A DNA stretch of 20,000 bases from an uncultured virus (IMG/VR IMGVR_UViG_3300027782_003801) (IMGVR_UViG_3300027782_003801), one strand, 5' to 3'; positions 5,580-20,000 are shown, numbered from the stretch's first letter. Numbers and translations are program-made. Notes: a model not told the origin generated them from the sequence alone.

Positions 5580-5584
5580 ATCTT

Positions 5585-6037
5585 ATGGGACTCTCAACAT
5601 TTAGATTTTTCAGGGGTATACTTCGTAAAGCGAGAGTAGTTCAATTAAGACATAGATTGACAAGAACACCAATTGCACACATACCAGTTCCCCCACACAC
5701 AGCAACGATATCTGAATATCGTAGAGCGTTTATTAATGGATGGAGATCCTGTGAGTTCGGAAGGAACATATACGACTGCCCACATTCATCATACGACCTG
5801 GTTGAAATACAATTAAAAAGGGAATGGGAATTTGGATTCACAGAATGTTTTAACACAAGACAAGAGGATTTTGTTGAGATTGACACAACAATTACTCAAA
5901 CAGATGAACAATGTTATCTAAATGGATGGGAACGAGCACAACAAGGACGTCCATTAAATGAAAACCCACATACATACGGGTCACACCAATTTAATATGTG
6001 GTATGTTGGGTGGAATGACTTTGTGGATAACCATTAG
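5585..6037 (+). CDS. Protein with two tandem Rmf/CrpP-like modules; FRFFRG tag
   Basis: Start revised to 5585. AFINGW...GRNIYDCPH...EWEFGF and YLNGW...GRPLNENPH...WYVGW match the Rmf pattern GYxAG...CPY...WxxGW. Confidence 0.65.
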   Translation: MGLSTFRFFRGILRKARVVQLRHRLTRTPIAHIPVPPHTATISEYRRAFINGWRSCEFGRNIYDCPHSSYDLVEIQLKREWEFGFTECFNTRQEDFVEIDTTITQTDEQCYLNGWERAQQGRPLNENPHTYGSHQFNMWYVGWNDFVDNH

Positions 6038-6065
6038 AATATTTCGTATATCCAAACTAATATCT

Positions 6066-6073
6066 TATATTTG
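6066..6073 (+). promoter_or_regulatory. Bacteroidota -7 box TATATTTG
   Basis: 4 nt upstream of ATG 6078; imperfect -33 (TTCG) 19 nt upstream. Confidence 0.6.
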
Positions 6074-6077
6074 TATC

Positions 6078-6536
6078 ATGACCGACGCACAAATAGTAAT
6101 ATCAATTTTATCTGGTATAATATTTTTTTTATATCTCGTTAACAATTTAATATCACTTTCTAATGTTGAATTGTATATGAAAAAATATAATGAATTACAA
6201 CGTGGTGTGTATAAGTATGAACCAAATCCAAGTCTTCAATCACATTATTTTTATTTATACAGTTACGATATTAATACCGTTACATTCACTAAAACTAATG
6301 TCTACATTTTATTCTTTCTTGATGGTGATATAAAACTAACAGAAAACAATTATATACATAAATGGCAAATATGGTGGTCAATACCAACTTGGTATCATTA
6401 TAGAAAACTTCATAAGTTAAAAGATGAGTTAATAGTAAATTATGAAAGAGGACTTGATTTTAGACAGATTTATGATAGAGCTGTAGAATTAGAAAGGAAA
6501 AAAAATAAGTTAGAATTTAAATTTTTGCGGGGATGA
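6078..6536 (+). CDS. Membrane-anchored hypothetical protein ending in LEFKFLRG
   Basis: Start revised to MTDAQ at 6078; N-terminal TM; C-terminal FKFL tag. Confidence 0.7.
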   Translation: MTDAQIVISILSGIIFFLYLVNNLISLSNVELYMKKYNELQRGVYKYEPNPSLQSHYFYLYSYDINTVTFTKTNVYILFFLDGDIKLTENNYIHKWQIWWSIPTWYHYRKLHKLKDELIVNYERGLDFRQIYDRAVELERKKNKLEFKFLRG

Positions 6537-7048
6537 TAAAACCATTCAAACTACTTAATGGGTATGTCTATGATGATGAGTATACATTACCAGTACGAAC
6601 AGATCCACCATTTGGTATATCACATCGTCATTGGAATATGTTGCCACAGGATTTGAGAGGTGGAACGCTAATACATATGGAAATATACATTGAGGGGTGG
6701 GAAGCTGGTCGCAATAATATCACCATCAATCCATATGAAGGTATTATCAATGACCCTATGGTTAGTGAATGGATTGAGTTGTGGAATAGAGGACATCTAA
6801 GGTGGTCTGATAGAACAGGACAAAATTTTAGAAATGTAAATCCCAACCCACCAATAGATGAAACATATCCTGAATTCTATAACACAGATGAATTTGTATT
6901 CTTTGACGTGACGCCAGTTGTGTATGATTCTGAATCTTATGTTCCATATAAATTCATGTTGTTTAGACATATTGAAGATGGGAACACAGTACAAGGAAGT
7001 AGAATAACCCCCGAACACCCAATGTGGAATTTTCCTGATATAATTTAA
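6533..7048 (+). CDS. Hypothetical protein with MIKPFKLL tag and Rmf-like module
   Basis: YIEGWEAG...NPY...LWNRG; ATGA overlap. Confidence 0.65.
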   Translation: MIKPFKLLNGYVYDDEYTLPVRTDPPFGISHRHWNMLPQDLRGGTLIHMEIYIEGWEAGRNNITINPYEGIINDPMVSEWIELWNRGHLRWSDRTGQNFRNVNPNPPIDETYPEFYNTDEFVFFDVTPVVYDSESYVPYKFMLFRHIEDGNTVQGSRITPEHPMWNFPDII

Positions 7049-7061
7049 AAAACAAAATAAT

Positions 7062-7226
7062 ATGAGATTAAACGTAGAATTACTTGCAATTGATTTTTAC
7101 AGAGTAGGAAGAAGTTGGATTTCTTTTTTAGAGATTAATTATGGTCACCCATTATTTTATTTAGAATGGGGACAAGGTATGAAAATACAAATCAGTTTTT
7201 TATTTGGACTAATTAAAAATTATTAA
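7062..7226 (+). CDS. Small hypothetical protein, 54 aa (not in ORF track)
   Basis: MRLNVELLAIDFYRVGRSW...; A-rich leader; ends 1 nt before the next ATG. Confidence 0.6.
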   Translation: MRLNVELLAIDFYRVGRSWISFLEINYGHPLFYLEWGQGMKIQISFLFGLIKNY

Positions 7227-7227
7227 T

Positions 7228-7461
7228 ATGAAATTTGAAGAAGCGGAAGAAAAATCTTTAACCGTAAAATGGGAAATCGGAACTTGCTCGCAAGGAGAAA
7301 GGTGTTGGTGTAGAACGATTAAACCTATTGAACCTATACTTTTTGATGATGGAGATAGTCAAGATGAATATTGGATAGTTGGGTCTGGCGAGTTACATAA
7401 AAATATTGCGGAGTATTTTGTTGAACTCCATAATAAAAATATTGAAAACAAAATTAAATAA
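7228..7461 (+). CDS. Hypothetical protein with C-x5-CWC motif
   Basis: ORF in a contiguous + strand operon. Confidence 0.7.
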   Translation: MKFEEAEEKSLTVKWEIGTCSQGERCWCRTIKPIEPILFDDGDSQDEYWIVGSGELHKNIAEYFVELHNKNIENKIK

Positions 7462-7462
7462 T

Positions 7463-7642
7463 ATGAAATTTAGAAAAACACTCACAGATAAACGTCTTGA
7501 AGAATTGTCTGATAAGGTAAGAAGAGGAACTCCAATCTTAATGAGTGAGGCAATTGAGGTGGTGGAATATCAAGAGATGTTAAAGAAGAATAAACTACCT
7601 TTCACAGATAGAATACTTAATTTCTTTAAAATAAAACAATAA
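7463..7642 (+). CDS. Small hypothetical protein
   Basis: Start revised to MKFRKT at 7463, directly after the upstream stop. Confidence 0.65.
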   Translation: MKFRKTLTDKRLEELSDKVRRGTPILMSEAIEVVEYQEMLKKNKLPFTDRILNFFKIKQ

Positions 7643-7647
7643 AGATT

Positions 7648-7875
7648 ATGAAAACATTTAAGTTCCTCTCAAAGAAACAAGTTCCTATACCAAATAGATA
7701 TAGTAGTTTAAGTCCTGAGGATAGAAACATATACACAAAAGGATATTATGATGCGTTTGATTGTTATAATCATAGTCGTTCGTTAGAGTCACCATACAAT
7801 CCACTTGTGGAAGAATATGAGTATGAATTATGGAGAGAGGGAGTTACGATGTATGAACGAAATAATAATGTATAA
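7648..7875 (+). CDS. Small protein with MKTFKFL tag and Rmf-like module
   Basis: YTKGYYDA...SPY...LWREG. Confidence 0.65.
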   Translation: MKTFKFLSKKQVPIPNRYSSLSPEDRNIYTKGYYDAFDCYNHSRSLESPYNPLVEEYEYELWREGVTMYERNNNV

Positions 7876-8273
7876 TGATAAAGGATTTCAAATTCTTTAG
7901 ATCTAACATAACAAGGGTTAATTGGCAACTAACCGGTTTATTAGATGATGCAACAAATGTTCCATTATTGATTGGTGTATTGGACATCACATACAAATAT
8001 ATTCAGGATAATAATCTAATGGATAATGATAGGGTTAATAATATGTTGATTATTATTATGACTAAATTATACAGAGACAAATATAATTCTTATAGTGATT
8101 ATGATATTAGAGGTAAGATTGATGAGGTTATGATTCATATGGATAGTGTCACAATAAGAAGATATATACAAGAACTTGCAGCGGGTGCTTGGACTAGTAT
8201 TGATGTTGAAGCGGAGATTAATCATATTATTTATGAAAAATGTAAATGGGAAGAACATGATCACGGATTTTAA
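7875..8273 (+). CDS. Hypothetical protein with MIKDFKFF tag
   Basis: TAATG overlap with the upstream gene; 132 aa. Confidence 0.7.
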   Translation: MIKDFKFFRSNITRVNWQLTGLLDDATNVPLLIGVLDITYKYIQDNNLMDNDRVNNMLIIIMTKLYRDKYNSYSDYDIRGKIDEVMIHMDSVTIRRYIQELAAGAWTSIDVEAEINHIIYEKCKWEEHDHGF

Positions 8274-8649
8274 ATTTTTATCGGGGGTGAAATCCATGTT
8301 GGATATGTATGGTAGAGAAATCAATCCAAATCATTATCAAACAATCAGTTTAACCGGCAATCTTCGTTTTCTAAAAGAATACCATAGAAGATTGGATTGT
8401 TTTTATATGTCACATTATAATATGTTTAATGATAGACATCCATTGTATAATCAATCATTAGAATTATATGATAGAACGGTTGGATTTATTAATGGAGGTC
8501 ATATAACAACCCATGAAGAGATAAGGAGATTTGTTCATATCGCTTATTCAGATATGGTCTATGGAGTATTTGAACCGTGGGAAATGGGTGGAGCAACAAA
8601 TCAGGAGATATTAGTTGATACATATAACTTTATAAACCCAAGACGATGA
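8257..8649 (+). CDS. Hypothetical protein with MITDFKFL tag
   Basis: Start revised to 8257 from the shared N-terminal tag and minimal overlap. Confidence 0.7.
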   Translation: MITDFKFLSGVKSMLDMYGREINPNHYQTISLTGNLRFLKEYHRRLDCFYMSHYNMFNDRHPLYNQSLELYDRTVGFINGGHITTHEEIRRFVHIAYSDMVYGVFEPWEMGGATNQEILVDTYNFINPRR

Positions 8650-8972
8650 AGGACTTCAAATTTCTCACCAAGAACAATACCATAAACTTTAACGGACAAA
8701 TGTCCATTGAGGCACTTAGATATTTCAATGATTATGTCAATAATGTAATTAGATATGAAATCTCAACACCAACCGCAACATATAGGATGGTGGATTACAC
8801 TTATGGTGACGGTAATATTGTGGCAGGAACTATCAACGCACATCCATCAGGTGTATCCAATGTAATGGTCACCTATAGTATAAGGAACGGGGAGATTACG
8901 GGACACACAATACATTTAGATTACTGGAATACGGCGGGACAGTTAGTAAACGCATTAAGAGAGACACAATAA
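8646..8972 (+). CDS. Hypothetical protein with MKDFKFL tag
   Basis: ATGA overlap; 108 aa. Confidence 0.7.
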   Translation: MKDFKFLTKNNTINFNGQMSIEALRYFNDYVNNVIRYEISTPTATYRMVDYTYGDGNIVAGTINAHPSGVSNVMVTYSIRNGEITGHTIHLDYWNTAGQLVNALRETQ

Positions 8973-8984
8973 AGACCCATACCA

Positions 8985-9229
8985 CTGTGAATGGGGATTC
9001 CGGCGTACGAAAACAATGATGGAGATAACCAGCACTAATCATAAATAACCATCTTAATGCACGAGAAAACCGGCATTAGAGATTCACTTTACATAATATT
9101 ACCAATATACTTTACATTATATGTAAAAACATATACCAAAATTAAAAACAGACGTAAAATGAATTTCACTATATCCAAATACATATAATTCAAAAGCGAC
9201 TAGATGTCCTCAGTCAGATAATATTATAA
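8985..9229. repeat. Duplicated intergenic element, copy A (candidate structured ncRNA)
   Basis: TTCCGGCGTACGAAAACAAT 8998-9017 and AAAGCGACTAGATGTCCTCAGTCAGATA 9193-9220 are identical to 12382-12401 and 12456-12483. Confidence 0.85.
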
Positions 9230-9239
9230 ACTAATAGGA

Positions 9240-9247
9240 TATTTATA
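9240..9247 (+). promoter_or_regulatory. Putative phage late-type promoter TATTTATA
   Basis: 4 nt before the ATG of the MKFLDIINE protein; same geometry at 14706 and 5506. Confidence 0.5.
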
Positions 9248-9251
9248 TACA

Positions 9252-10775
9252 ATGAAGTTTTTAGACATTATAAACGAATCCGAAGAAGAAAGGTTATTAA
9301 AGAGAGGAAAGACAATCTTTAAAGCATTTAAGGAGGGAACAATCACACGTACTGATGGAGTATCGTTTAGTTATGTATTAGATAACAATGTGGAGATGAT
9401 GGTAAGAAACGGGGAATTAGAACTATACGGATCTGTTTCCAAGATAGTAGAAAAAACCTATTGTCCAATCAATGAAAGGTATATGACGGAGTTAATAGAG
9501 AATAGATTTCGTAAGTTCTATATTACCACAGATTTAAGACCTCCAAGTAAAGACAACATACATAAGTTCCAAGGAAAGAAACCGTGGGAAGAGGACTTAA
9601 ATGATTTAGTGTACTTAAATGAATCCAACGAGTATAAACTAATTAGAAAGGGGAAACTTATATTCAAGGCGTTAAGAAAGGGAACCATAGGGTCTGAGGA
9701 TGAACCTAATAAACCTATGTTTACTTATGAATTATCCGATGATATGTCTGTAAGTTTACATGAAGGTGAAATTATCATTTTTACAGATGAGATTAAGGTT
9801 GTGGAACTGAATGAACCATGTGTAAGAATGAGCACGGATTTAATGGCACGTAAAATTAGTAATAGGTTTAAGCAATTTAAAGTTACATTGTCACATCCAC
9901 CAATACATCCTTTTAATGTGGATAGTTATTATGATAGACGTAAGAAAGAAGAATTAAACGAGAATTTGGTCCATATAATAACGGATGAAGATAAAAAAAA
10001 GGTTAAACTCGTTCATAAAGCAATAAGTTCGGGTGTTGTTAAGGTAAATGACGTTAGATATAGATATGAACTTCCTAAGAACTACCAAATGAGTCCAGCG
10101 AATAATAAAATTATACGTATTAGATTTGAGTTTTATAATGGGGATTTAATTGGTCCCAACCGTGGGGAGAAGTTACCATTAAAGTTATGGAGAATAGAAG
10201 AGGGTAAGGATATATATATCAATGGATTATTAGATAATACGGATGTATCAGATATATGTTATGGTGAACACTATCATCAGAAAGAAACGACACAGGAGTA
10301 TATGATGGTTAAAAATGCGGTTCGTAGGAGATATAATAACTTTAACATTTCATTAGATGTGTCCCCCAAAGATAGAACATTAAAGGTATTTAATAATAAT
10401 CCAGTAAATGAACAGGATGATGTGGTTATTACAGATGATTATATCTACCCAACCAAAGAACAGAAGAAAAGGGCAAAGATATTCTATCATGCGTTTAAGA
10501 CGGGGAAGTTCACAATAGAAGACGATGGTGGAACGTACAAATATGTTCTTCCTGATGAGTATTATGTAAGTGTGGCGGGTGATGGTGTATTAAATATTGT
10601 TTTAACCATGAATCCCCAACAAAAAATGAAGATGTATTTTGTACATAAGGATCATGAGACGGGAGAAACAATAGAAAAAGACATAGACACTTCAAAAAGA
10701 ACTTACCTACATCAATGGATGAAGGATAAGATAGAGAATAAATTCAAACAATTCCAAATTAATTTTATATTTTAA
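9252..10775 (+). CDS. Four-repeat putative virion (internal head) polyprotein
   Basis: Four copies of (I/L/V)NE...K-x-K-x-I-F-x-A-x-x-x-G...Y-x-L...N-R/K-F-x-x-F. Confidence 0.75.
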   Translation: MKFLDIINESEEERLLKRGKTIFKAFKEGTITRTDGVSFSYVLDNNVEMMVRNGELELYGSVSKIVEKTYCPINERYMTELIENRFRKFYITTDLRPPSKDNIHKFQGKKPWEEDLNDLVYLNESNEYKLIRKGKLIFKALRKGTIGSEDEPNKPMFTYELSDDMSVSLHEGEIIIFTDEIKVVELNEPCVRMSTDLMARKISNRFKQFKVTLSHPPIHPFNVDSYYDRRKKEELNENLVHIITDEDKKKVKLVHKAISSGVVKVNDVRYRYELPKNYQMSPANNKIIRIRFEFYNGDLIGPNRGEKLPLKLWRIEEGKDIYINGLLDNTDVSDICYGEHYHQKETTQEYMMVKNAVRRRYNNFNISLDVSPKDRTLKVFNNNPVNEQDDVVITDDYIYPTKEQKKRAKIFYHAFKTGKFTIEDDGGTYKYVLPDEYYVSVAGDGVLNIVLTMNPQQKMKMYFVHKDHETGETIEKDIDTSKRTYLHQWMKDKIENKFKQFQINFIF

Positions 10776-11135
10776 ATGAAACTATTAGATATACTAAATG
10801 AGGATGCTGAGGTGGATGTCCCAAAGGAGAAAAAGAGGGTTAAAACCGTATTCAGGGCGTTAAGGTCAGGGGTTATGTTTGTCCCATTCTTGGGATATAA
10901 AATTAAATATGAACTTAATAACGACTACCAATTAAGTGTGGGGATAGGTAAAGGTCATAGTGACACCATTCTGTTTATTCCATCTGATGACAAGACACCA
11001 AAGATAAAGTTATATGAGATTGGGTCCGATGGGGTGGAAAGATATTTCAGTGTAAATGGATATGACGCCATATATCAAGCCATGTGGCAAATGATAAGTC
11101 AAAGGTTCAAAAATTTCAAAATACATCTAAGATAA
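10776..11135 (+). CDS. Single-domain paralog of the 9252 repeat unit
   Basis: MKLLDILNE...KKRVKTVFRALRSG...KYEL...ISQRFKNFKI. Confidence 0.8.
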   Translation: MKLLDILNEDAEVDVPKEKKRVKTVFRALRSGVMFVPFLGYKIKYELNNDYQLSVGIGKGHSDTILFIPSDDKTPKIKLYEIGSDGVERYFSVNGYDAIYQAMWQMISQRFKNFKIHLR

Positions 11136-11159
11136 TTAGGATATTCCAATTCGTACTAG

Positions 11160-11167
11160 TATATTTG
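11160..11167 (+). promoter_or_regulatory. Bacteroidota -7 box TATATTTG
   Basis: 4 nt upstream of ATG 11172; TTAG 20 nt upstream. Confidence 0.6.
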
Positions 11168-11171
11168 TGGT

Positions 11172-11417
11172 ATGAAAATCCCAATTCAACTAACATACAA
11201 ATACTTCAGTGAGACCATAACCATTAAGAAGAAGGTGGATAGTCTTCATATAGGAGATACCATGGAGATGTATAAAGGTATTATTGTCCCCATATATGGT
11301 CAGGAGAACTACGAGAGGGTTATAATAACACTTGCTCAAAGGATAATGGAACAAAGGAGAAAGAAGGAACCCAAAACACTAATCAAAAGGATTGTGGATA
11401 AAATATTGTATTATTGA
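11172..11417 (+). CDS. Hypothetical protein
   Basis: 81 aa ORF behind a promoter box. Confidence 0.7.
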   Translation: MKIPIQLTYKYFSETITIKKKVDSLHIGDTMEMYKGIIVPIYGQENYERVIITLAQRIMEQRRKKEPKTLIKRIVDKILYY

Positions 11418-11450
11418 TAATATAATGAAAATATTGTATAATTCGGAGAT

Positions 11451-12359
11451 ATGAAGATAACAAGTTTTAATATAAAGGTGAATAAGGATTCCAAACTATT
11501 CATTGGAATAGGGGATAGTTTCTGTGAGGGTTCTGGAGCTCAACCAATTGAGATATGGGAGAAGTATGGTTGGGACAGATGGAAAATGTCCTTATCGGAT
11601 GAGGGGAGTGAATGGGCAATAAAGAACTCATTTGTGAATAAGATATGTGAGAGACATCTAAAGGACTTTACACCTGTTAATTTGGGTAGTGGGGGAAAGG
11701 GAAATAGATATGCCATAAGGGAACTATTCTTAAACCCAACAATTGATTTTAAGATTGCCAAGGAGAAGATTGTGGTATTTGCAATGTCAGGGATTGAAAG
11801 GTTGGACTTCTCCAATTCCATTGTAAGTGATAATAATGGTGACCATACAACAACGATATGGTCATATAATGAAGAAAATGTAATGAAAGGGTATTCGGGT
11901 TTATTGAGACCTGACGGGGAGAGTATAAACAATATAAGGTTTGCAATATCTGAATTTATGTTTGATATGTTTATGTTGACAAACTGGTGTGAGTTGAATA
12001 ATGCTAAGTTACTATTGTTTAGTGGGTTTTCTAAAGAATATAACAGGGAACATTTTAACAGGTTATTGATTCAGGATAATGGTGGGCTTGATATTGATGT
12101 GGTTATGGAGAATACAAGATTATTGCTTGATAGAATGCCATGGGATAAGATTATTAGACCCATGGGATATGAATGTGTCACCGATATGTTATTACACTTG
12201 GAAGGTAGGGATGATTTAAATGGACATCTTGGTGGAATAAATTACGAGACCATAGGAGAGAATCATTATTTAACCAAGTGTCAACATCCATCATATAAAG
12301 GACACGAATTACTATCGGACATCATATATGAGAAGATTATAGAATGGGGTTACTTATAA
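11451..12359 (+). CDS. SGNH/GDSL hydrolase-like protein
   Basis: IGDSFCEG, NLGSGGKGN, QHPSYKGH. Confidence 0.7.
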   Translation: MKITSFNIKVNKDSKLFIGIGDSFCEGSGAQPIEIWEKYGWDRWKMSLSDEGSEWAIKNSFVNKICERHLKDFTPVNLGSGGKGNRYAIRELFLNPTIDFKIAKEKIVVFAMSGIERLDFSNSIVSDNNGDHTTTIWSYNEENVMKGYSGLLRPDGESINNIRFAISEFMFDMFMLTNWCELNNAKLLLFSGFSKEYNREHFNRLLIQDNGGLDIDVVMENTRLLLDRMPWDKIIRPMGYECVTDMLLHLEGRDDLNGHLGGINYETIGENHYLTKCQHPSYKGHELLSDIIYEKIIEWGYL

Positions 12360-12368
12360 CTCACAACA

Positions 12369-12494
12369 CCGAGAACGGGGGTTCCGGCGTACGAAAACAA
12401 TCCCAAAACTGGCGTCAGAATGTTAGATACTATATCCCAATTAGGTATAATCTCTAAAGCGACTAGATGTCCTCAGTCAGATATATTATTATAA
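12369..12494. repeat. Duplicated intergenic element, copy B
   Basis: Same two conserved blocks as copy A, with a 54-nt rather than 175-nt linker. Confidence 0.85.
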
Positions 12495-12539
12495 TTCGTG
12501 GGATATCTAATGAATGTGGATAACTTATACAAGAAATAG

Positions 12540-12571
12540 TTTGGAATATAAAGAATATAATCGTATATTTG
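12540..12571 (+). promoter_or_regulatory. Consensus Bacteroidota promoter
   Basis: TTTG 12540-12543, N20, TATATTTG 12564-12571. Confidence 0.8.
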
Positions 12572-12593
12572 TATTATTAAACAATAAAAACAT

Positions 12594-12953
12594 ATGGAAC
12601 AAGTATTATTAGAAAAAGACAATAAGAAAATCGGGTTGAAAGAGTTAGATGTTAAATTCTGTGGACATAGAGTTACAGGTTCAACAGGAAGAGAAACATT
12701 CCTAATCACATTATCTATTATCGGAGGTTTAGTCGGGGGATATTCTAAACTTAGTGAGTATTCAGAAGATATCTCAGAGGATAAAGAAACCTTCCATATA
12801 AGAAACCCTAAGAGTTATGACCAACAATTCATAAGAGAAATGGGAGATTATTATGTATGGTTTAACTACTCAAATGAACAAAAGAGATATAGATTACAAA
12901 GTCTTGTTGAGAGATTAAATCTACAGGATAAATTCTACATTACATTGGATTAG
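12594..12953 (+). CDS. Hypothetical protein (monocistronic)
   Basis: Own promoter and terminator; A-rich leader. Confidence 0.75.
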   Translation: MEQVLLEKDNKKIGLKELDVKFCGHRVTGSTGRETFLITLSIIGGLVGGYSKLSEYSEDISEDKETFHIRNPKSYDQQFIREMGDYYVWFNYSNEQKRYRLQSLVERLNLQDKFYITLD

Positions 12954-12956
12954 TAT

Positions 12957-12981
12957 AAGGGGACCTAAAGGTCCCTTTTTT
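12957..12981 (+). terminator. Rho-independent terminator
   Basis: AAGGGGACC-TAAA-GGTCCCTTT running into a T-tract, just after the TAG stop. Confidence 0.85.
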
Positions 12982-13861
12982 ATTCCTCCTTGGTAAGGGA
13001 CTTATAGACCTGGTACAAGGAACCTATTATGGAGATAATCATAAGGATAAAGATGTATATCATAGGGTATTATTTGGATATAAAGATAGGATAAACTTCC
13101 GAGATTGTCCACGTTTTAGTTCCGACTTTGGACCTGTTTTATCCCACTATGTCTCCGACATCTGTGTCGGGAACATCCTGTTTACCCCCCGACGAGGACC
13201 TTTAGGTCCGAGATAATTGTCCTGTTTAAGGTACATTTTTCCCACCTTAATACCCCCGAAAATTACCCCTAATTTATCCCCGATATTGATACTAATATCC
13301 CCACTTTATTCACCTTGATCTGTCGGGATCCATTTAGGGGATGGAATTCCCACTTTTAGCGTATATTTATTGATACCGTATATAATATCGGTAATTTGGG
13401 GAGAAAGTGGGGAAAAGTGGTAGTATGTGGGGATTGACCCCTGACCGAATCAAGGACCATATCCATAAAAATTTGAATATATAACTGTATTACGGGGTCC
13501 TTCGGACCCCTTCAGGGGTGACACAATGTCCATTTATGTTATGTATATGAATAACCCATCATACGTAATACAGTGGTTAGTAATACATCCCATTCCATTT
13601 AACATAATGTACGTTATAGGTTCACAAGTAATACACATCTTTATCCACACCCATCCCCTGAAGGGACGACCGTAGGATCGTCCCGTAATACACTTGCCAG
13701 ACAATATCGGTAGATTTAATGTTTAACCATTTAAGTGTAATACTTACACAAAACTTGCCAAACAATATTGTCCGTCATACATCCGTTCGTCTACGGTAAT
13801 ACATAAAACCTGAAGGGGACCCATAGGGTCCCCGAACAATTAAAATATGTGCTTGTGTGTA
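12982..13861. other. Large repeat/hairpin-rich non-coding region at the convergent strand switch (origin/terminus/pac candidate)
   Basis: No credible ORF; several repeat families (TCCGA..CCTGTTT, CCCAC/GTGG, GTAATAC, GGG-hairpin-CCCTTCAGG); DnaA box at 13641. Confidence 0.6.
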
Positions 13862-14701
13862 TTACGCGGAGAAGTCTATACCGAAGTGTTTAAACCTATT
13901 TTTCAACCATTCTTTAAAGTCATCTTTTTCATCGTAATTAAGAGGACATGTATTACTTGTGATTTTAACCCCGTCAATATAGGCGTGACCTGGACTATAA
14001 CTTATTTCAAAATCGGGACTAATAATCTTATCCCTTTTATTATAGTTTTTATTCATTTGGTGTACGGTAATACTAGGTTGGTTAAACTTACCGTAGTCAT
14101 ACGTGTGACCTTTCCAAGTTCCTTTACCCAAAGCCGTGTAGATTGTCTTACACTTCTTAACTAATTTGGTCATTGTGGTCGAGTAGTCTTCTGAGAACGT
14201 CGGTAATTGTTCTGGCAATAATAGGTATAAGTTTTCATTTTGAAATAATTCATATAATGAGTTTGGTCTTTCTATCTTCACATTATAGACATTATTGTCC
14301 ATATAGTCTTTTAAGAATAATATCCCCTCCATAAGGGTTATTGTCACCCTTTCAATGTGGATTCTAAAATCCGTTCTATCTTTTAACACATCATAATAGT
14401 GATCAAGAAATTCTTCCTTGGACATGTTTCTTGCCAAACAAATTGTGTTGATCAGCTCGTCCCCCGCTATTTTAATTAAATCTGGTGGTATGATTGGATT
14501 AACATGATCAGGATTATATGTAACATACACTTCAAATTCTCTTTTTGAAACGAAACGATATGTAATATAACCTGTACCGCTGGTAAACTTAAGTTTCTTC
14601 AAATACCGTAAATCATCAGATACCTTAAGTAGAAGGTTCGTAAGCTCAACCTTCTTTAGGTCACTCCCTGCTTGTTCTGATATAATGTCCATAATCTTCA
14701 T
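13862..14701 (-). CDS. Putative virion protein (MKIMDIISEQ) with a C-terminal copy of the 9252 repeat domain
   Basis: Start revised to 14701; KKCKTIYTALGKG...LKNRFKHFGI. Confidence 0.75.
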   Translation of the reverse strand: MKIMDIISEQAGSDLKKVELTNLLLKVSDDLRYLKKLKFTSGTGYITYRFVSKREFEVYVTYNPDHVNPIIPPDLIKIAGDELINTICLARNMSKEEFLDHYYDVLKDRTDFRIHIERVTITLMEGILFLKDYMDNNVYNVKIERPNSLYELFQNENLYLLLPEQLPTFSEDYSTTMTKLVKKCKTIYTALGKGTWKGHTYDYGKFNQPSITVHQMNKNYNKRDKIISPDFEISYSPGHAYIDGVKITSNTCPLNYDEKDDFKEWLKNRFKHFGIDFSA

Positions 14702-14705
14702 GTTA

Positions 14706-14713
14706 TATAAATA
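14706..14713 (-). promoter_or_regulatory. Putative phage late-type promoter TATTTATA
   Basis: 4 nt before ATG 14701. Confidence 0.5.
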
Positions 14714-14764
14714 GTTCTTTGCCAAACAATATTCGAGTCGGTCTTCCTGATCAGTGTCGTCTTT

Positions 14765-14797
14765 AAACAATAAACCCCCCACAATAGTGGAGGGTCT
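14765..14797 (-). terminator. Rho-independent terminator of the 58-aa gene
   Basis: Minus strand AGACCCTCCAC-TATT-GTGGGGGGTTT then ATTGTTT; the mismatches are G-U pairs only on the minus strand. Confidence 0.7.
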
Positions 14798-14821
14798 ACT
14801 ATCGTTCTTATAATCTACAGG

Positions 14822-14998
14822 TTATGCAGATAATAAAGTATTTCTGTAAGTAATCGCTGTTCTCTTGTTAGAGAAGTTCTTACTGTGTTTTGTTCCTTCT
14901 ACAGATACACGAACACGGTAGCTGTTACCGTCGAAGTATACATTGTTAGATACAGGAACATAAGTTGTCTTGGTAGAACGAGATTTGGTTGTTTTCAT
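14822..14998 (-). CDS. 58-aa basic AP2/integrase-arm-type DNA-binding domain protein (not in ORF track)
   Basis: MKTTKSRSTKTTYVPVSNNVYFDGNSYRVRVSVEGTKHSKNFSNKRTAITYRNTLLSA; beta3-alpha pattern; downstream terminator; TCT/CGT/AAC/TAC/TTC codons. Confidence 0.7.
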   Translation of the reverse strand: MKTTKSRSTKTTYVPVSNNVYFDGNSYRVRVSVEGTKHSKNFSNKRTAITYRNTLLSA

Positions 14999-15126
14999 TT
15001 TTACTGAATTTTAATTTAACATTATTGTTTATAAAATATAAACCATTAATTCGGTAAAAAAAAATAAATGGCAACTTATTTTTCGTTTTGTCAGAACTGG
15101 TGTTGCCAAACAACATTCACAGTGGA

Positions 15127-15267
15127 TCAGGACTCGAACTTCTTGTCAATCCATTTATACCACTCCTCACCGTACTTCTGTTCCATATGGTTGAAGTACC
15201 TGTAATGTTTTCTCTCGTTGTAGAGGAAATACACGAAGTAATAATCTATGTACCACTCCAACTTCAT
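15127..15267 (-). CDS. Small aromatic-rich hypothetical protein, 46 aa (not in ORF track)
   Basis: MKLEWYIDYYFVYFLYNERKHYRYFNHMEQKYGEEWYKWIDKKFES; starts 1 nt after the upstream stop. Confidence 0.65.
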   Translation of the reverse strand: MKLEWYIDYYFVYFLYNERKHYRYFNHMEQKYGEEWYKWIDKKFES

Positions 15268-15268
15268 T

Positions 15269-15457
15269 TTAAATCTTTTCATGGTATTCTATTTCAATGT
15301 TAACACTGTCTAAGTTGAATTCGTCGTAGAACTTCTCCAAGATATCAATCTTAGCATCTGCTGAAATGTATAGGATTAGTCCCATATCCTTCTTTCGTTG
15401 AATCTTAGAGATTTGGTCCGTAACCCATAGTTTAACCATTTGGTCATTTAGTTTCAT
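15269..15457 (-). CDS. Small hypothetical protein
   Basis: Start revised to MKLNDQ at 15457. Confidence 0.65.
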   Translation of the reverse strand: MKLNDQMVKLWVTDQISKIQRKKDMGLILYISADAKIDILEKFYDEFNLDSVNIEIEYHEKI

Positions 15458-15776
15458 CTTGTAGTATTTTATATTGTTTATCACCAATAGTATCCAAGAT
15501 ATATGCCACCTCCACTATATCTTCCAAGTCATATGTGGATATGTCATCGAACTCATCACCATATGGTGTTACACCTGTCAAGTACTGTCCATCAGTCATT
15601 GTCCTTACAAGATACGGTACCTTAGTCATAGTTGCATCGTACTCATTATCCTCACTGATGTAAACATTAAATGGGTGGGTAAACTCTATGGTTTCCCCGA
15701 GTTTGAATAGATTCTCTATCTCATTACAGAACTTGGTCTTCAGGTTCTTAACTTCTTCCCTTGAGTTGTAGTTCAT
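15444..15776 (-). CDS. Acidic hypothetical protein
   Basis: Member of the minus-strand operon; ATGA overlap. Confidence 0.7.
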   Translation of the reverse strand: MNYNSREEVKNLKTKFCNEIENLFKLGETIEFTHPFNVYISEDNEYDATMTKVPYLVRTMTDGQYLTGVTPYGDEFDDISTYDLEDIVEVAYILDTIGDKQYKILQDETK

Positions 15777-16336
15777 ATTAATTCATTTAAAAATTTATTT
15801 GGAAATCTTTCCATACCAAAATCTATTGCAATTCCTACAATCTTTCCCTTGTGTTTTGCCACAAGACATCTGTATCCACCATCACCAATACCTGATGACG
15901 ATACCACACCTGTGTCATACATACCCCACGACTCGGTGGATAATGTGAATTGGCACATCTTCTCGTACCACTCATCACCATCCCTATCTTTCACACCTAA
16001 GGTAAATGGTCTTCCATCATATGTCTTATCAGGTGTTGTAATACTTGAGGCAATGTCGTCATTCTTGAAAGAAGACATGCTGAAGATTCCTGCTTGACCT
16101 GAATCCACCCCAACTTGACCAGGGTAATTTCTCCAAGATAATGTATCCTCCACATAATCCTCGTGGACAGTAAGTAATACAGAACACCTGTTCCCCCAAT
16201 TAGGGTCCTCAGTTTTTCTCACGGTAGTTATGTAACCACCAGGTAATACATCCTTTAGTTTTACTTGACACCAAGTTTCGTCCGAGTAGCAAGGGTCACT
16301 GACCATCACATCACTCTCAAGTGTAATACGGTTCAT
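15773..16336 (-). CDS. DUF4241-like phage protein
   Basis: VSDPCY, VGVDSGQAGIF, SSGIGDGGY motifs. Confidence 0.65.
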   Translation of the reverse strand: MNRITLESDVMVSDPCYSDETWCQVKLKDVLPGGYITTVRKTEDPNWGNRCSVLLTVHEDYVEDTLSWRNYPGQVGVDSGQAGIFSMSSFKNDDIASSITTPDKTYDGRPFTLGVKDRDGDEWYEKMCQFTLSTESWGMYDTGVVSSSGIGDGGYRCLVAKHKGKIVGIAIDFGMERFPNKFLNELI

Positions 16337-16387
16337 AGTTTATAAGTTTAGGGTTTAAAGTTATGACATAGTTATGATATCACAAAA

Positions 16388-16888
16388 TTATTTGGAATAT
16401 ATTCTTTTATAGTTATTAACATTTTCTACAATCTCTGTTAACATTACAGCGGATACCTTGTCATACGCCCTCAACATAAACAATTGATTGCCAGACAACA
16501 TTGCGAGATCTGCTGTCCCATCTTGGAAGTATAAATCTATTGGGTCTATTAGAACTCTAACTTCATTGATATCATTATCGGACCTAAAGAAAGGACAACG
16601 ACCATACACATATGTATCTCTTACAGTGTAGAGTTTGATAGTGTCCTTCATGTTAGTTAAGGCTCTAATCTGCATAATGATTACTTCTAATTCAGACAAC
16701 TGTTGAAAGTCCACCTTGTGTTTAGAAACTTTATTACTGTACTCTGTTACAAAATCTGCCAGACAATATCCACCTGGCTGATCAGATCCGTGACTCCTTG
16801 TTATGAACTGGTCGTAAGTACTTCTTTCTTTAGAGGTACCTACAATGTTTACGAATACTCCTTCCGTGGTTTTATTTAACCTACCCAT
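16388..16888 (-). CDS. Hypothetical protein
   Basis: 166 aa; TAATG overlap; carries two embedded 14-bp motifs. Confidence 0.7.
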   Translation of the reverse strand: MGRLNKTTEGVFVNIVGTSKERSTYDQFITRSHGSDQPGGYCLADFVTEYSNKVSKHKVDFQQLSELEVIIMQIRALTNMKDTIKLYTVRDTYVYGRCPFFRSDNDINEVRVLIDPIDLYFQDGTADLAMLSGNQLFMLRAYDKVSAVMLTEIVENVNNYKRIYSK

Positions 16889-17103
16889 TATAGTATATTT
16901 AAATTGTTAATAAATTTGCCAAACAATATCGACCAGGATGATCTCTGTGGTTGTCCAAGAAAAACTCTGGTGTTAAACACATTGCCTCCATAATATGGAG
17001 TTGGTTTGTTGTAGTGACTTGCCACACCAAATTGGCGGAACCATTCGTCCTGAGGAGGTTGTTTTTCAGGATATGTTGTCTTACATACTCTTTCTTTAGT
17101 CAT
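16888..17103 (-). CDS. Small hypothetical protein
   Basis: 71 aa, overlapping both neighbours. Confidence 0.65.
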   Translation of the reverse strand: MTKERVCKTTYPEKQPPQDEWFRQFGVASHYNKPTPYYGGNVFNTRVFLGQPQRSSWSILFGKFINNLNIL

Positions 17104-17752
17104 TTAATTCTTCTTTAAGTTGTTTAATAATTGTTTCTTTATCTTCATCCGTTACGAAACCGAAGTTCTCGTTTACATATTCTACTATTTTAACTTCATC
17201 TATTGTTTCATCCTCATCTTCTTCATCATCAGATGTTATTTCATCACGAGCTGAATCAATCATAGATTCAAGCTCCGAATTCCAAAACAACTCCTTGTCC
17301 AACAAATAAATGCCCTCCAAATAAGGATACTCACTATCATCAACCATTGTGAATCCATCTTCATCACGATAGATTTTGGTTTCACCACTGAACCCTATAC
17401 CACCTTCACTATAGAAGATGTAAGCTTCAATACCATCATACTGCTTAACCAAGTTGGTTAGAAATTCTATGGGAGGACTCCAAGCTGTATCAGGATATAA
17501 TCTGATTTCAGTTTCATCATAATCCATATTACAATCACTATATGACACATCCCATTTAGTCCCGAACCAACTTACATTGGTATTGTACCAATCCTTATCA
17601 TAATCGGCTTTAGTCATATGGTCAGGATATCCAATAAGGGATTGGAATACTCTGTCTTCACCATCTTTAGTATTTTCAATAACCCTTACTAAAGTAGCTA
17701 TAATTTTTTCATCTCCATTAATTCTAATGGAATTGTTACACCAGTTTGGCAT
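17096..17752 (-). CDS. DUF1281/YubB ferredoxin-like domain protein
   Basis: MPNWCNN, WY.....FGTKWD, TAWSPP, YSEGG motifs. Confidence 0.75.
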   Translation of the reverse strand: MPNWCNNSIRINGDEKIIATLVRVIENTKDGEDRVFQSLIGYPDHMTKADYDKDWYNTNVSWFGTKWDVSYSDCNMDYDETEIRLYPDTAWSPPIEFLTNLVKQYDGIEAYIFYSEGGIGFSGETKIYRDEDGFTMVDDSEYPYLEGIYLLDKELFWNSELESMIDSARDEITSDDEEDEDETIDEVKIVEYVNENFGFVTDEDKETIIKQLKEELND

Positions 17753-17770
17753 GATATATAATTTAATTGA

Positions 17771-18232
17771 TTACCAAGATGAACGATAGTAAAAAGAAGC
17801 ACCTTTATTATCTTCTTCTAATAAATCTTTAAGTTGAATAATAGTAGATTTAACTTCTTCCCAATAGTATTCGTCAATTTCATCACTACCGAAGAAGAAA
17901 CCCTGTGCTGTTGGCAGTATAGTTTCTGCAGTGTCTTTATTATCATAGACATATGTTAATGTTTCCAATAACATCTTCAGGTCTGATTCATCTACAAAAC
18001 ATTCTTTACAATCATCCACACCCTCTTGTACATTATCGACGAACCATTTGTGAAGAGCATTAAACTTTCTCCACTCCATCACCTGTTCCATAACATAACA
18101 AATTCTGTCAGGTTTAATGTGGTCTAATTTCTTTTTACCTTTCTTAACAGAGATGGTGTGTCTTTCATTATCAGACATCCAATCCCAATTCTTAACATAG
18201 TGTTTCTTGTAGAGATACATATCTAATCCCAT
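17771..18232 (-). CDS. Conserved phage hypothetical protein (MGLDMYL...WRK.N...YYxSSW family)
   Basis: Recognisable motifs MGLDMY, WRKFNALHKWF, LPT..GFFFG, YYRSSW. Confidence 0.75.
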   Translation of the reverse strand: MGLDMYLYKKHYVKNWDWMSDNERHTISVKKGKKKLDHIKPDRICYVMEQVMEWRKFNALHKWFVDNVQEGVDDCKECFVDESDLKMLLETLTYVYDNKDTAETILPTAQGFFFGSDEIDEYYWEEVKSTIIQLKDLLEEDNKGASFYYRSSW

Positions 18233-18251
18233 AGTTGTAAGTTTTAGGATA

Positions 18252-18284
18252 CAAAGATAATGAATATTCTTTTATAACGCCAAA
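18252..18284 (-). promoter_or_regulatory. Consensus Bacteroidota promoter for the minus-strand operon
   Basis: TTTG (18281-18284), N21, TATCTTTG (18252-18259). Confidence 0.8.
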
Positions 18285-18359
18285 TTATTTAAAGCTTTTT
18301 TTATAAAAAAACATGCGCGCAGATCAGGTGGATATTGTTTGGCAAATTCTGTTATTGAT

Positions 18360-18372
18360 TATCAATGAGTTA
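18360..18372 (+). promoter_or_regulatory. IHF-consensus site
   Basis: TATCAA-TGAG-TTA matches WATCAANNNNTTR exactly; lies between inverted 14-bp motifs. Confidence 0.55.
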
Positions 18373-18454
18373 TGTTTTGCCAAACAACATCGTTGCTGCG
18401 CGCAGATCTGCAGCATGCTATGCGAAACAAGTATTACATGCGAAACAACATAGC

Positions 18455-18485
18455 AAAAAAATCCCCCGTACTTCTACGAGGGATT
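18455..18485 (-). terminator. Rho-independent terminator
   Basis: Minus strand ATCCCTCGTA-GAAG-TACGGGGGAT followed by T6. Confidence 0.8.
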
Positions 18486-18512
18486 GAACTAAACTTACTA
18501 ACCCACATCCAT

Positions 18513-18692
18513 TTATTTTTTACAAACTAAATCACTCAATAGTCGAGAACTACCTTTGATTATTATTGTTTCTTTCATTGCTTCGTCAATCGTTGTAATA
18601 CCCTTCTTGTGTAGTTTGAAATCAGTACCATTGTTGGTGTACCAAATTTCATACGTTTTGTTGTTTGAAGACAACTTAATAGTGGTCGTCAT
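18513..18692 (-). CDS. Small hypothetical protein (59 aa)
   Basis: Start revised to MTTTIKL at 18692 (AACTATG context as in neighbours); followed by a terminator. Confidence 0.65.
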   Translation of the reverse strand: MTTTIKLSSNNKTYEIWYTNNGTDFKLHKKGITTIDEAMKETIIIKGSSRLLSDLVCKK

Positions 18693-18808
18693 AGTTTTAC
18701 GGATTTGTTGAAATGCTAAAGTAATACAAAAAACAATACAAACCAACAAATTTATTTTTATTTATTTTTGCCAGACAATATCCGTCAGGGGCCCACAGGT
18801 ATTACACC

Positions 18809-18840
18809 AAATAAAAATGGGTATCATTTCTGATACCCAT
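18809..18840 (-). terminator. Rho-independent terminator
   Basis: Perfect 10-bp stem ATGGGTATCA-GAAA-TGATACCCAT followed by TTTTATTT. Confidence 0.85.
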
Positions 18841-18906
18841 CGTATAACAAACACTCTCCATATAAACACTATATAATATACCGAATATTTTGGATATAAA
18901 CAAATA

Positions 18907-19203
18907 TTACCAACCATCTACTTCATTTGGATTGGTTGAGAGAGTATTATTCAATACTTGTATCATCTCACCCACTTTATCCATATAATAAATCTCGGCT
19001 GTGGGTTCATTACCATTCTCACTTGGTTGTAATACTTCATTTAAACCATCAATTTCTTCCCAACCAATATCCTCCAGGTCCCCTCTGTCATACATTTCTT
19101 TAGCAATCTTGACAGCTTCGTTTAAATCGTTAGCCTTTACCTCAAACTCGGTTTTCATCCATGTTGTTACCTTTTGGTCAAGGCGAAAGTCAAATGTTTT
19201 CAT
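18907..19203 (-). CDS. Hypothetical protein, DpnD/PcfM-like N-terminus
   Basis: EVKANDLNEAVKIA pattern. Confidence 0.6.
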   Translation of the reverse strand: MKTFDFRLDQKVTTWMKTEFEVKANDLNEAVKIAKEMYDRGDLEDIGWEEIDGLNEVLQPSENGNEPTAEIYYMDKVGEMIQVLNNTLSTNPNEVDGW

Positions 19204-19214
19204 ATTGTTTTATT

Positions 19215-19397
19215 TTAAAATTTACCTACGTGTTTTCCCCTATGAGCCCCGTATTTCTTTTCAAATTTCATGATGGCTTCACGAGGCGTGTGCATCCAAT
19301 ACGTCTCCTCGTTCCCTTTTTTATTCCATATATTAATCACCAAACCATCTTGGTTAAAGTGCATAAGTGGAGGTTCTTTTTTCATAACTTTTTTCAT
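19215..19397 (-). CDS. Small hypothetical protein
   Basis: Tightly packed minus-strand operon. Confidence 0.6.
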   Translation of the reverse strand: MKKVMKKEPPLMHFNQDGLVINIWNKKGNEETYWMHTPREAIMKFEKKYGAHRGKHVGKF

Positions 19398-19398
19398 A

Positions 19399-19653
19399 TT
19401 ATCTCCGATTTTTATTTATCTCCACAAGACGTTCCCAACTCCAAGTTATTTTTTTCTTTCGTCTGTTCATCGTCATTATCACAAACACATCTTCTCTATC
19501 ACCAGTACCCACACCTTCCCACCATTTTGACGGAACGATTTCAAGATAGATTTCAATACCATCATTTATTTCTTTATCAGTAAAATTACTATTAAAATAT
19601 TTTACATACTCAAAGAACTCATCTCTTTTCTTTTTTGAAATTTTCTTTTCCAT
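19399..19653 (-). CDS. Small hypothetical protein
   Basis: Tightly packed minus-strand operon. Confidence 0.65.
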   Translation of the reverse strand: MEKKISKKKRDEFFEYVKYFNSNFTDKEINDGIEIYLEIVPSKWWEGVGTGDREDVFVIMTMNRRKKKITWSWERLVEINKNRR

Positions 19654-19656
19654 AAC

Positions 19657-19896
19657 TTAATATTTACTTCTAATACCCCTTCTACGATATAAGTCGTCGT
19701 ACGGGTTAATATTTGGTTTAAGTGATTCATTGATTAATGTAATGTCAGCTTCAGATATTTCATCCACAAACTTCTTATCAAGGTCATCAATGTGTTTGCC
19801 GGACAACTTGTCGTAACCACCCATCTGATATTTGGGGTAGATGATTTTGGTTTCGGTGTCAAGTACAGATGCAACTGATTTTAATTCTACTATCAT
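19657..19896 (-). CDS. Small hypothetical protein
   Basis: Tightly packed minus-strand operon; AACTATG start context. Confidence 0.65.
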   Translation of the reverse strand: MIVELKSVASVLDTETKIIYPKYQMGGYDKLSGKHIDDLDKKFVDEISEADITLINESLKPNINPYDDLYRRRGIRSKY

Positions 19897-19899
19897 AGT

Positions 19900-20000
19900 T
19901 TAAGATTTAGGGAAGTCATCTTCCGTGATTTCTAATATTGTTTCCACATTATAATTCCAACTATCCATATAACCAAATAGGTCTTCATCACTCTCTTTGA
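19900..20000 (-). CDS. 3' end of a hypothetical protein (partial)
   Basis: Open frame ...KESDEDLFGYMDSWNYNVETILEITEDDFPKS* ending 3 nt before the next start. Confidence 0.6.
   Translation of the reverse strand, partial: KESDEDLFGYMDSWNYNVETILEITEDDFPKS

Follow-up and report, generated by a model that had tools for sequence, protein, structure and literature searches.

What reads a short word that a phage genome repeats many times, between its genes and inside them, and mostly in one orientation? This question is raised by a 20,000-nt stretch of DNA from the uncultured virus IMGVR_UViG_3300027782_003801 (hereafter the window, meaning the whole stretch at its full length), in which copies of one asymmetric word form an array on one side. 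The word, designated word A, is a 14-mer; its form in the sense of the surrounding genes is ATRTTGTYTGGCAA, and its 10-bp core, as written on the + strand, is TGCCARACAA. The tentative answer, held with a little less than even confidence and derived from sequence comparison, is that word A is an asymmetric recognition half-site of a putative lineage-specific DNA-binding regulator of an early gene module.

The window has 32% G+C and carries mostly ORFan genes. Syntenic relatives used for comparison are G002 (97 kb, 80-94% nucleotide identity to the window), G005 and G006 (66-91% identity) and the genome G007 (335,630 bp; 100% complete according to CheckV, with ends overlapping by 126 nt); G001 (83 kb) and G003 (323,865 bp, 97% complete) are more distant relatives. 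Tail sheath, baseplate, portal, large terminase, family-B DNA polymerase, helicases and ribonucleotide reductase are encoded in the genome G003, and therefore the window and its relatives are assigned to jumbo myophages. The DNA of the window, or DNA nearly identical to it, was found in freshwater and lake metagenome runs of 20 studies.

Word A in the window

The core TGCCARACAA is present in the window in eleven exact copies, ten on the + strand and one on the - strand, all of them within 13695-18778 (Table 1); a pattern scan recovered in this way each exact copy reported by the first-pass annotation of this DNA. In dinucleotide-preserving shuffles 0.02 copies are expected, and none of 200 shuffles reached 11. 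With the relaxed 14-mer pattern TTGCCARACAAYAT, at most two mismatches being allowed, 14 matches were found against 0.93 expected, including those at 18438, 19057 and 19796. Word A is absent from the part of the window below 13694 in scans for both the exact core and the 14-mer with up to two mismatches, in agreement with the earlier statement that bases 1-13600 hold no copies. Two of the four degenerate copies named at that time, at 18438 and 19796, were recovered by the relaxed scan; the other two, at 18420 and 14206, are present but more distant, since 18420 shares only TGCGAAACAA with 18438, and 14206 is in the opposite orientation with one extra base.

All genes of the window to the right of ~13860 are encoded on the - strand, and therefore ATRTTGTYTGGCAA is the gene-sense form of the word. 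Ten copies of the word are oriented with the genes and one, at 18332-18345, against them; the array is clustered and oriented, as first described. Four copies are located inside coding sequences (CDSs) and, according to the translations, are read in two different frames, as had been noted; one frame gives ICLAR and YCLAD, the other MLSGN and ILFGK. A fifth, apparently intragenic copy, at 14719, falls within a GTG-started extension of the open reading frame (ORF) 13862-14782; the homologue in G002 starts at the ATG equivalent to 14701, and the copy is probably located upstream of the real start at 14701, outside the CDS.

Table 1. Features of the word A array and of its surroundings in the window. 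Sites of word A are listed on the strand of the gene-sense word; for a core on the + strand, the 14-mer starts at the core position minus 1.
Feature	Position	Strand	Exact core	Description
Word B (GTATTAC) range	13487..19035	-		19 copies, 14 on the gene strand
Site A	13694..13707	-	13695 (+)	gene-sense ATATTGTCTGGCAA; single; located downstream of the module's last gene; conserved in both G002 and G005; word B (GTATTAC, 13691-13685) 2 nt further on, then a hairpin
Site A	13755..13768	-	13756 (+)	single, intergenic, 61 nt from the preceding copy; conserved in G002 and G005
Site A	14431..14444	-	14432 (+)	within CDS 13862-14701 (encodes ICLAR); 2 mismatches to the 14-mer; weakest copy; one core mismatch in G002, absent in G005
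Site A	14719..14732	-	14720 (+)	18 nt upstream of the likely true ATG 14701 of a 279-aa gene; 13/14 positions identical in G005, flanks 37%
58-aa basic protein gene	14822..14998	-		predicted three-strand sheet and helix (integrase arm-type/AP2-like)
Site A	15103..15116	-	15104 (+)	intergenic, 105 nt upstream of the 58-aa gene; 14/14 identical in G005
Site A	16488..16501	-	16489 (+)	within the 166-aa gene (encodes MLSGN)
Site A	16756..16769	-	16757 (+)	within the 166-aa gene (encodes YCLAD); 9/14 identical in G005, GTTTGGCA retained
Site A	16916..16929	-	16917 (+)	last codons of a 71-aa gene (encodes ILFGK); 27 nt upstream of ATG 16888
Promoter pattern, Bacteroidota-type	18252..18284	-		TTTG, 21 nt, TATCTTTG at 18259-18252, 19 nt before ATG 18232; downstream of the inverted pair
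Convergent inverted A pair	18332..18390	.	18335-18344 (-), 18378 (+)	18332-18345 read on +, 18377-18390 on -; 31-nt AT-rich spacer with a small palindrome; GC-rich tracts with GATC on both sides; also in G002 (66486/66529) and G005
Variant word tandem	18420..18451	+		two copies of TGCGAAACAA around one word B
Terminator-like hairpin and T run	18460..18485	-		intrinsic type; upstream of the inverted pair; hairpins nearly identical to it are repeated in the cassettes of G002
Site A	18768..18781	-	18769 (+)	single; flanked by terminator 18841-18816 and word B (18727-18721), with gene 18513-18692 downstream; conserved in both G002 and G005
Terminator-like hairpin and T run	18816..18841	-		intrinsic type; upstream of site 18768
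Degenerate A copy	19796..19809	-		2 mismatches; within gene 19657-19896

Conservation of the sites

Conservation was assessed in a three-way alignment of the window, G002 and G005, with ±60 nt taken as flanks. All 10 sites together have 185 columns, of which 120 are identical between the window and G005; in the flanks this holds for 614 of 1161 (Fisher p 0.0025). One site is split by an alignment gap; in the nine cleanly aligned sites 107 of 127 columns (84%) are identical, compared with 529 of 1042 (51%) in the flanks. At third codon positions of the two site-bearing genes, identity between the same two genomes is 10/11 inside the word and 111/220 outside it (p 0.011). At site 16488, residues of the G005 protein change from M to I and from S to F exactly at the two degenerate positions of the word.

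The homologous gene for a 166-aa protein carries the word of its own lineage in each genome: two copies were found in the window, two in G002, three in G005, one in G001 and two in G003. These words arose by substitution, the length of the gene being unchanged. The sites of word A are, on this alignment evidence, under selection at the level of DNA; the earlier claim that selection acts on the DNA and not on the protein is borne out by the identity of sites versus flanks and by the conservation of synonymous positions.

Confinement to one gene module

In the complete genome G007, 31 of the 33 exact cores are located in ~18 kb (30 in 25,416-40,326 and one at 22,342), the orientation ratio of all 33 being 27:6, and 40 of the 44 relaxed matches belong to the same module. 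All 30 exact cores of G002 are found in 56,887-71,383 (orientation 24:6; relaxed matches, 42/45 in the module), and all 30 of G005 in 46,829-59,589. The array of G002 coincides exactly with a single run of small + strand genes (56,114-72,513), the neighbouring genes on both sides being on the - strand, and the window covers only the promoter-distal third of this module. Counted genome-wide, as the first-pass annotation had advised, the motif is neither uniformly distributed nor unoriented. The cumulative GC skew, another check proposed there, was calculated for G003 and shows gene-strand effects only, with no replication-linked component and no inflection at the module. Given the module confinement and the gene-strand skew, the array therefore belongs to one transcription module and not to a replichore or a genome end.

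Spelling of the word in sister lineages

The word of the window is not enriched in the syntenic module of G003. All 44 copies of another word, TTTACTGGA, were found there in 156,417-174,116 (17.7 kb), with an orientation of 34:10 and with pairs, single and intragenic copies as in the lineage of the window. The word of G001 has the form TGWTTGGCY (also given as TGTTTGGCY). Among 44 loci, taken around homologues of the conserved 58-aa module gene, with the word defined as the commonest GC-containing 9-mers, at least 10 word types are represented, many with a common YTGG core. Sister lineages swap the spelling of the word and keep the same grammar. The variant TGCGAAACAA, present in the window at 18420 and 18438, is the main word of another lineage (locus L150). 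A literature string search with four 11-mers returned no description of the word among the 10 matches listed of 70, which were unrelated by title (primers, enhancers).

The tetranucleotide GATC is located within 30 nt on the 5' side, in gene sense, of 8 of the 11 window sites, compared with 4.5% of random 30-nt windows of the module. From the genome of G003, GATC is nearly purged: 14 copies are present in the 305 kb outside the module versus ~3 per kb (~900) expected from base composition, while the 18.5-kb module keeps 29 copies, 26 of them within 30 nt of a site. G003 also has a gene (302300-303040) for a methyltransferase of the Dam class (PF02086). In the module of G007, which has the same word as the window, only 6 GATC are present, the homologous flanks being mutated, and this rules out GATC as an obligatory part of the site. 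In the 83 kb of G001, CATG occurs zero times; this looks like restriction-site avoidance, with a specificity unlike that of G003.

Cassettes and the grammar of the sites

In the relatives, the spaces between genes in the promoter-proximal half of the module consist of repeated cassettes. The order of elements is a terminator hairpin with a T run; ~40-46 nt of GC-rich DNA; word A, single or as a convergent inverted pair; again GC-rich DNA; the 8-mer GTATTACA; an AT-rich stretch with a TTAACAA repeat; and TTTG-N20-22-TAnnTTTG, followed after ~19 nt by ATG. Spacers of the convergent pairs range from 0-2 nt, as in five tight palindromes of G002, to ~43 nt. Those five were found among 42 G002 sites, and none is present in the window, the only pair of which has a 31-nt spacer.

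The grammar was counted over five records with 174 sites in total. Coding sequence makes up about two thirds of the module, yet the majority of the sites are intergenic. Of the 93 unpaired sites, 81 have the direction of the genes, as have 26 of the 28 intragenic ones, and ~40% of the copies of the relatives belong to convergent pairs. Word A is separate from the promoter and the stem-loop and is present also in genes, where both of these are missing. A hairpin between the GC tract and word A was sought at the copies and is formed by one only (16758-16778).

The promoter pattern TTTG-N20-22-TAnnTTTG recurs ~19 nt before ATG in the cassettes of G002 and G003, with one clear case in the window. 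Its -7 element matches the -7 box of the Flavobacterium sigma-A as given in PMC9723704, where Shine-Dalgarno sequences are also described as absent in that phylum; they are absent here as well. From the -7 box match and the absent Shine-Dalgarno sequences, a Bacteroidota host and transcription by the host polymerase ('early' transcription) are therefore inferred. The density of host-type -33/-7 patterns is 1.6-8 times higher in the module than outside it, with 41 of 42 patterns on the gene strand. At several promoters of G003 the word is located 12 nt upstream of the -33 TTTG. Strong terminators were predicted 40-73 nt upstream of sites in G002 (five cases). The scan for sigma70-type promoters found 33, with 34 expected, and was set aside as uninformative. 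A sigma54-type reading of the TGGCA core was rejected by eye, the conserved -12 element being absent at the right spacing.

A second word, word B (GTATTAC), accompanies word A. Its 7-mer is absent from positions 1-13486 of the window. The gene strand of the G002 module has 21 copies of the 8-mer GTATTACA and the other 81 kb have two, and in the module of G007 (22-41 kb) all 21 copies of word B are on the gene strand (21:0). Word B is thus more strictly co-directional with the genes than the 14-mer. A single 187-aa gene contains four copies of the 7-mer (window 16038-16323), which are read in two frames.

Perfect 9-mers of the DnaA box (TTATCCACA) are present in five copies in the window, one of them at 13640, and in 11 copies in G005 (46-60 kb), some being fused to word B in cassettes. 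Their enrichment was discarded as a feature of the module, to which the boxes are not restricted.

Candidate reader proteins

A 248-aa protein with a predicted ParB fold is encoded in the module of G002 (62,076-62,822), its gene being flanked by inverted pairs; the gene of the window's phage would lie just beyond the right end, past base 20000. PHROGs names the protein ParB-like (E 1e-27). Its AlphaFold (AF2) model has a pLDDT of 84.7, and the top Foldseek matches are ParB, Noc and KorB (probability 1.0, E 4e-4). The protein is present in G001, G002 and G005 and has at least 200 relatives in public data. Its gene was found in 17 of the 44 loci, namely in 16 of the 18 with a top word holding TGGC or GCCA and in L150, and in none of the nine ACTGG-type loci, few independent lineages standing behind this comparison, as the 44 loci include many near-duplicates. 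On the strength of the modelled fold and this co-occurrence, it is the leading, though unproven, candidate for the reader, and in the TGGC lineages only.

The 58-aa protein has weak fold matches to integrase arm-type and AP2 domains (best E 0.38) and at least 200 relatives in public data. Each of the four lineages encodes it close to the 3' end of the module, and identity among the 120 relatives listed is 69-97%. As a reader it was rejected: the sequence of its sheet is nearly identical in lineages with unrelated words (e.g., L147 versus L150) and does not co-vary with the word. A GP88-family protein was likewise rejected as a substitute for the ParB-fold protein, since both co-occur in seven loci and are not complementary, and BLASTP found no similarity between them.

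Other features of the module and the window

Genes of the module (window 17096-17752 and relatives) encode DUF1281_C/Api92-like, DUF932, DUF4314, DUF1737 and L5 gp82-like domains. This content recalls the leading regions of plasmids and of integrative and conjugative elements, and by this analogy hints at an anti-defence or takeover role of the module. A stand-alone homologue (~95 aa) of the C-terminal domain of the RNA polymerase alpha subunit (PF03118, 38-44 bits) is encoded in the modules of G002 (59954-60106) and G003 (162283-162456); it may serve host takeover by acting at UP-like elements.

The convergent junction 13490-13830, which follows the last module gene, has no long ORF and contains seven GTATTAC, two sites of word A and three GC hairpins, each followed by TTCAGG. 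Hairpins with a TTCAGG tail form a family also present in G001, G002 and G003, and they may encode small RNAs or special terminators. A search against Rfam finds nothing at 13490-13830 and, over 12500-20000, returned nothing but a chance snoRNA match (E 0.29). No tRNAs were found in the window.

Two families of paralogues were recognized by eye in the window (6533-8972; 9252-11135 and 13862-14701). One is represented by small + strand genes opening with the motif (D/T/P)FKF(L/F); the other has the domain 'K..K.IFKA.K.GT', repeated four times in a 507-aa protein and present once in a 119-aa protein and once in the 279-aa protein encoded on the - strand. At the right end, positions 19891-20000 are 100% identical over 110 nt to G001 (9243-9352); the identity starts exactly at a gene boundary, the surroundings being unrelated or diverged, and suggests a recent mosaic exchange.

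Function of the word

An array of protein-recognition sites is supported as the most economical reading of word A. This part of the first-pass annotation stands, while its analogies to Ter, KOPS and terminase-recognition sites are not supported; the likeness to parS, also drawn there, could hold only in the sense of a transcription operator, given the ParB-fold gene in the module of the relatives, and it is limited by the dominance of oriented half-sites and by one lineage without that gene. The location between terminators and promoters, the inverted pairs and the co-evolving spelling of the word are best matched by a protein operator. The strict polarity of the single copies and their upkeep inside genes fit a promoter or a transcription-coupled contact.

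According to the mechanism proposed, a regulator that binds the half-sites as a monomer or a flexibly linked dimer would mark the transcription units of a single module, 15-18 kb in length and made up of small accessory genes. Inverted pairs would then be full operators and single sites directional contacts, and binding would switch or insulate the whole module, most likely by shutting off or boosting host-type promoters. The candidate ParB/KorB/Noc-fold protein, if it is the reader, would act as KorB does on its operators.

Several observations speak against a half-site regulator of this kind and against the ParB-fold protein as its reader. Oriented single half-sites and intragenic sites are atypical of a repressor that binds a palindrome, and in cassettes of the G002 type the distance between word and promoter is not fixed. 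TM-scores of the ParB-fold protein to ParB structures are low (0.29-0.38), and searches of Pfam, NCBIfam and PDB sequences leave it unnamed. A profile search of G003, which is 97% complete and has the same grammar, finds no homologue. Identity among the ParB-fold proteins does not track the word, as a 75%-identical copy has a different word and 34-52%-identical copies have the same word. The Bacteroidota host and the reading of the module as 'early' and transcribed by host RNA polymerase were derived from promoter-like patterns. RNA contigs of three metatranscriptomes cover module genes in pieces, with no power for starts, strands and levels and with DNA carry-over possible.

Alternative readings

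It is rather unlikely that word A is itself a promoter or a key promoter element, recognized by a host RNA polymerase that a phage sigma factor or a MotA-like appropriator redirects, in a second, 'middle' mode with internal promoters in upstream genes. Such a role agrees with the co-directionality of unpaired and intragenic copies, with a single highly conserved block that is GC-rich on its 5' side and AT-rich on its 3' side, and with the position of some copies 18-28 nt before a start codon. The lineage-specific spelling is as in pairs of phage polymerases and promoters, and early-promoter motifs of jumbo phages vary from phage to phage, as stated in the review PMC7598289. Two sigma70_r2-like ORFs are present in G003, in which neither a multisubunit nor a T7-like RNA polymerase was detected. 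Against this role, the convergent pairs formed by ~40% of the relatives' copies include abutting ones (0-2 nt), both members of which cannot fire. The cassette word is located upstream of a separate host-type -33/-7 promoter, no second element is found at a fixed spacing, and the sigma genes are far from the module. In the class of phage promoters every copy would be co-directional and able to fire; here this direction is kept by 81 of the 93 single copies, but convergent or abutting pairs are common.

A polar signal for a transaction of the DNA itself, such as genome entry, an injection stop or pulling, a strand-specific nick, replication priming or a fork barrier, packaging or recombination, is improbable. 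It would account for the strong strand bias of one asymmetric word over 15-18 kb and for the upkeep of own-lineage copies inside genes, which suggests that a certain density along the DNA is required, and GATC is found beside the sites in several lineages, as in the module of G003 (26 of 29). Nevertheless, the word is confined to 4-6% of complete genomes, in contig interiors and at varying distances from arbitrary ends, and the genome-wide replication-polar distribution of KOPS, Chi and Ter is not seen. Orientation follows the strand of the local genes, as does the GC skew, the sites are enriched in intergenic terminator-promoter cassettes of one transcription module, and convergent pairs are unfit for a one-way signal. 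A single pac- or cos-like locus is not seen either, 30-44 copies being spread over 15-18 kb, and the large terminase gene of G003 is ~70 kb away. The link with GATC is absent in G007, which has the same word.

Little credence is given to concerted evolution as the source of the array, word A being then a conserved patch in recombination-joint cassettes similar to PeSLs, which serve the swapping of small genes, with no dedicated reader. In PMC2839356 and PMC4122927, as far as these describe them, PeSLs are promoter/stem-loop repeats of ~100 bp that mediate modular shuffling. Cassettes of terminator hairpin, GC tract and word recur here with near-identical hairpins, and the window and its relatives are mosaic, as in the 110 nt shared with G001 and flanked by unrelated DNA. 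The synteny with G002 breaks ~20 nt from site 15103, the other breaks noted in an unsystematic survey being at gene ends. On the other hand, the word is far better conserved than the rest of the cassette, obeys a strict orientation rule, and is present also in genes, in two frames and in own-lineage spelling, having arisen by substitution and not by insertion.

A true parS-like centromere or condensation array, at which a ParB-fold protein would serve partition or compaction of phage DNA and not gene control, is highly improbable: a protein with a predicted ParB/Noc/KorB fold is encoded in the module, its gene co-occurs with TGGC-type words and two half-sites form tight palindromes five times in G002, but tight palindromes are absent from the window, and oriented half-sites, or pairs whose spacers are long and variable, make up most of the sites. 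A partner ParA was not noticed in PHROG scans of G002 and G003, G003 has the array without the ParB-fold protein, and a lytic jumbo phage has no known need for partition.

The regulator reading of word A can be extended further, at a level of confidence that remains low. The words may be a fast-evolving 'address code', in which each lineage has its own reader and 30-45 direction-sensitive docking sites tag only the early accessory, anti-defence-like module, to be silenced, insulated or handled as one unit; the spelling would diverge lest co-infecting relatives cross-regulate each other, in the manner of immunity groups of temperate phages and incompatibility groups of plasmids. Some lineages could possibly use a clamp of the ParB/KorB type as reader, and others an unrelated protein.

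Comparison with described systems

Of the systems described, the PeSL cassettes and the KorB operators are closest to word A, which lacks a defining feature of either one. PeSL cassettes of T4-type phages, in the description of PMC2839356 and PMC4122927, combine in ~100 bp a terminator hairpin and a host-type early promoter and are linked to gene swapping. On that description, the likeness consists in composite cassettes repeated among small ORFan genes, in a plastic part of the genome of a large myophage, and the cassettes of the window's phage hold a host-sigma-type promoter pattern with an adjacent predicted terminator-like stem-loop. The difference is that the conserved word is here an extra 14-bp asymmetric element, neither promoter hexamers nor hairpin, arranged in convergent pairs and oriented singles, also inside genes, with a spelling that varies by lineage; the promoter type is the Bacteroidota -33/-7 and not sigma70.

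Operators (OB) of KorB, a CTP clamp of the ParB family from plasmid RK2, are located near promoters or from 45 bp to >1 kb upstream of them, as outlined in PMC11790492. So described, they share with word A the many copies of one operator over the regulatory regions of a mobile element and, in some of the lineages, a protein of predicted ParB fold encoded among the sites. One lineage of the phages considered here has the array without such a protein. Furthermore, OB is a short palindrome bound by a dimer, whereas oriented half-sites dominate here, with pair spacers from 0 to ~43 nt.

MotA boxes of T4 middle promoters are asymmetric activator sites of fixed orientation, distributed through the prereplicative region, co-directional with the genes and often located inside upstream genes. 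Word A is similarly asymmetric, co-directional and in part intragenic. Unlike MotA boxes, it has no -10/-7 element at a fixed distance and forms inverted pairs, and in G003 it is placed upstream of the -33 element and does not replace it.

Early-promoter motifs of jumbo phages that encode their own RNA polymerase are, in the account of PMC7598289, short, conserved, phage-specific and AT-rich, centred near -10 and read by a virion multisubunit RNA polymerase. Like word A, they were found by bioinformatics upstream of presumed early operons; the motifs as presented in that review are not palindromically paired, and an RNA polymerase of this type was not detected in G003. Operator-like and promoter-like features together, as in word A, are shown by no single known system.

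Significance

The array is a computable handle on how a very large, lake-abundant phage addresses one block of genes. The conserved grammar, together with the turnover of words (at least 10 among the 44 loci), makes the co-evolution of word and reader testable by covariation over hundreds of metagenomic lineages. The array also offers orthogonal pairs of operator and reader, as well as Bacteroidota-type promoter cassettes, for genetic tools in Flavobacteria. If the ParB-fold protein is the reader, clamp regulation of the KorB style would be extended from plasmids to lytic phages.

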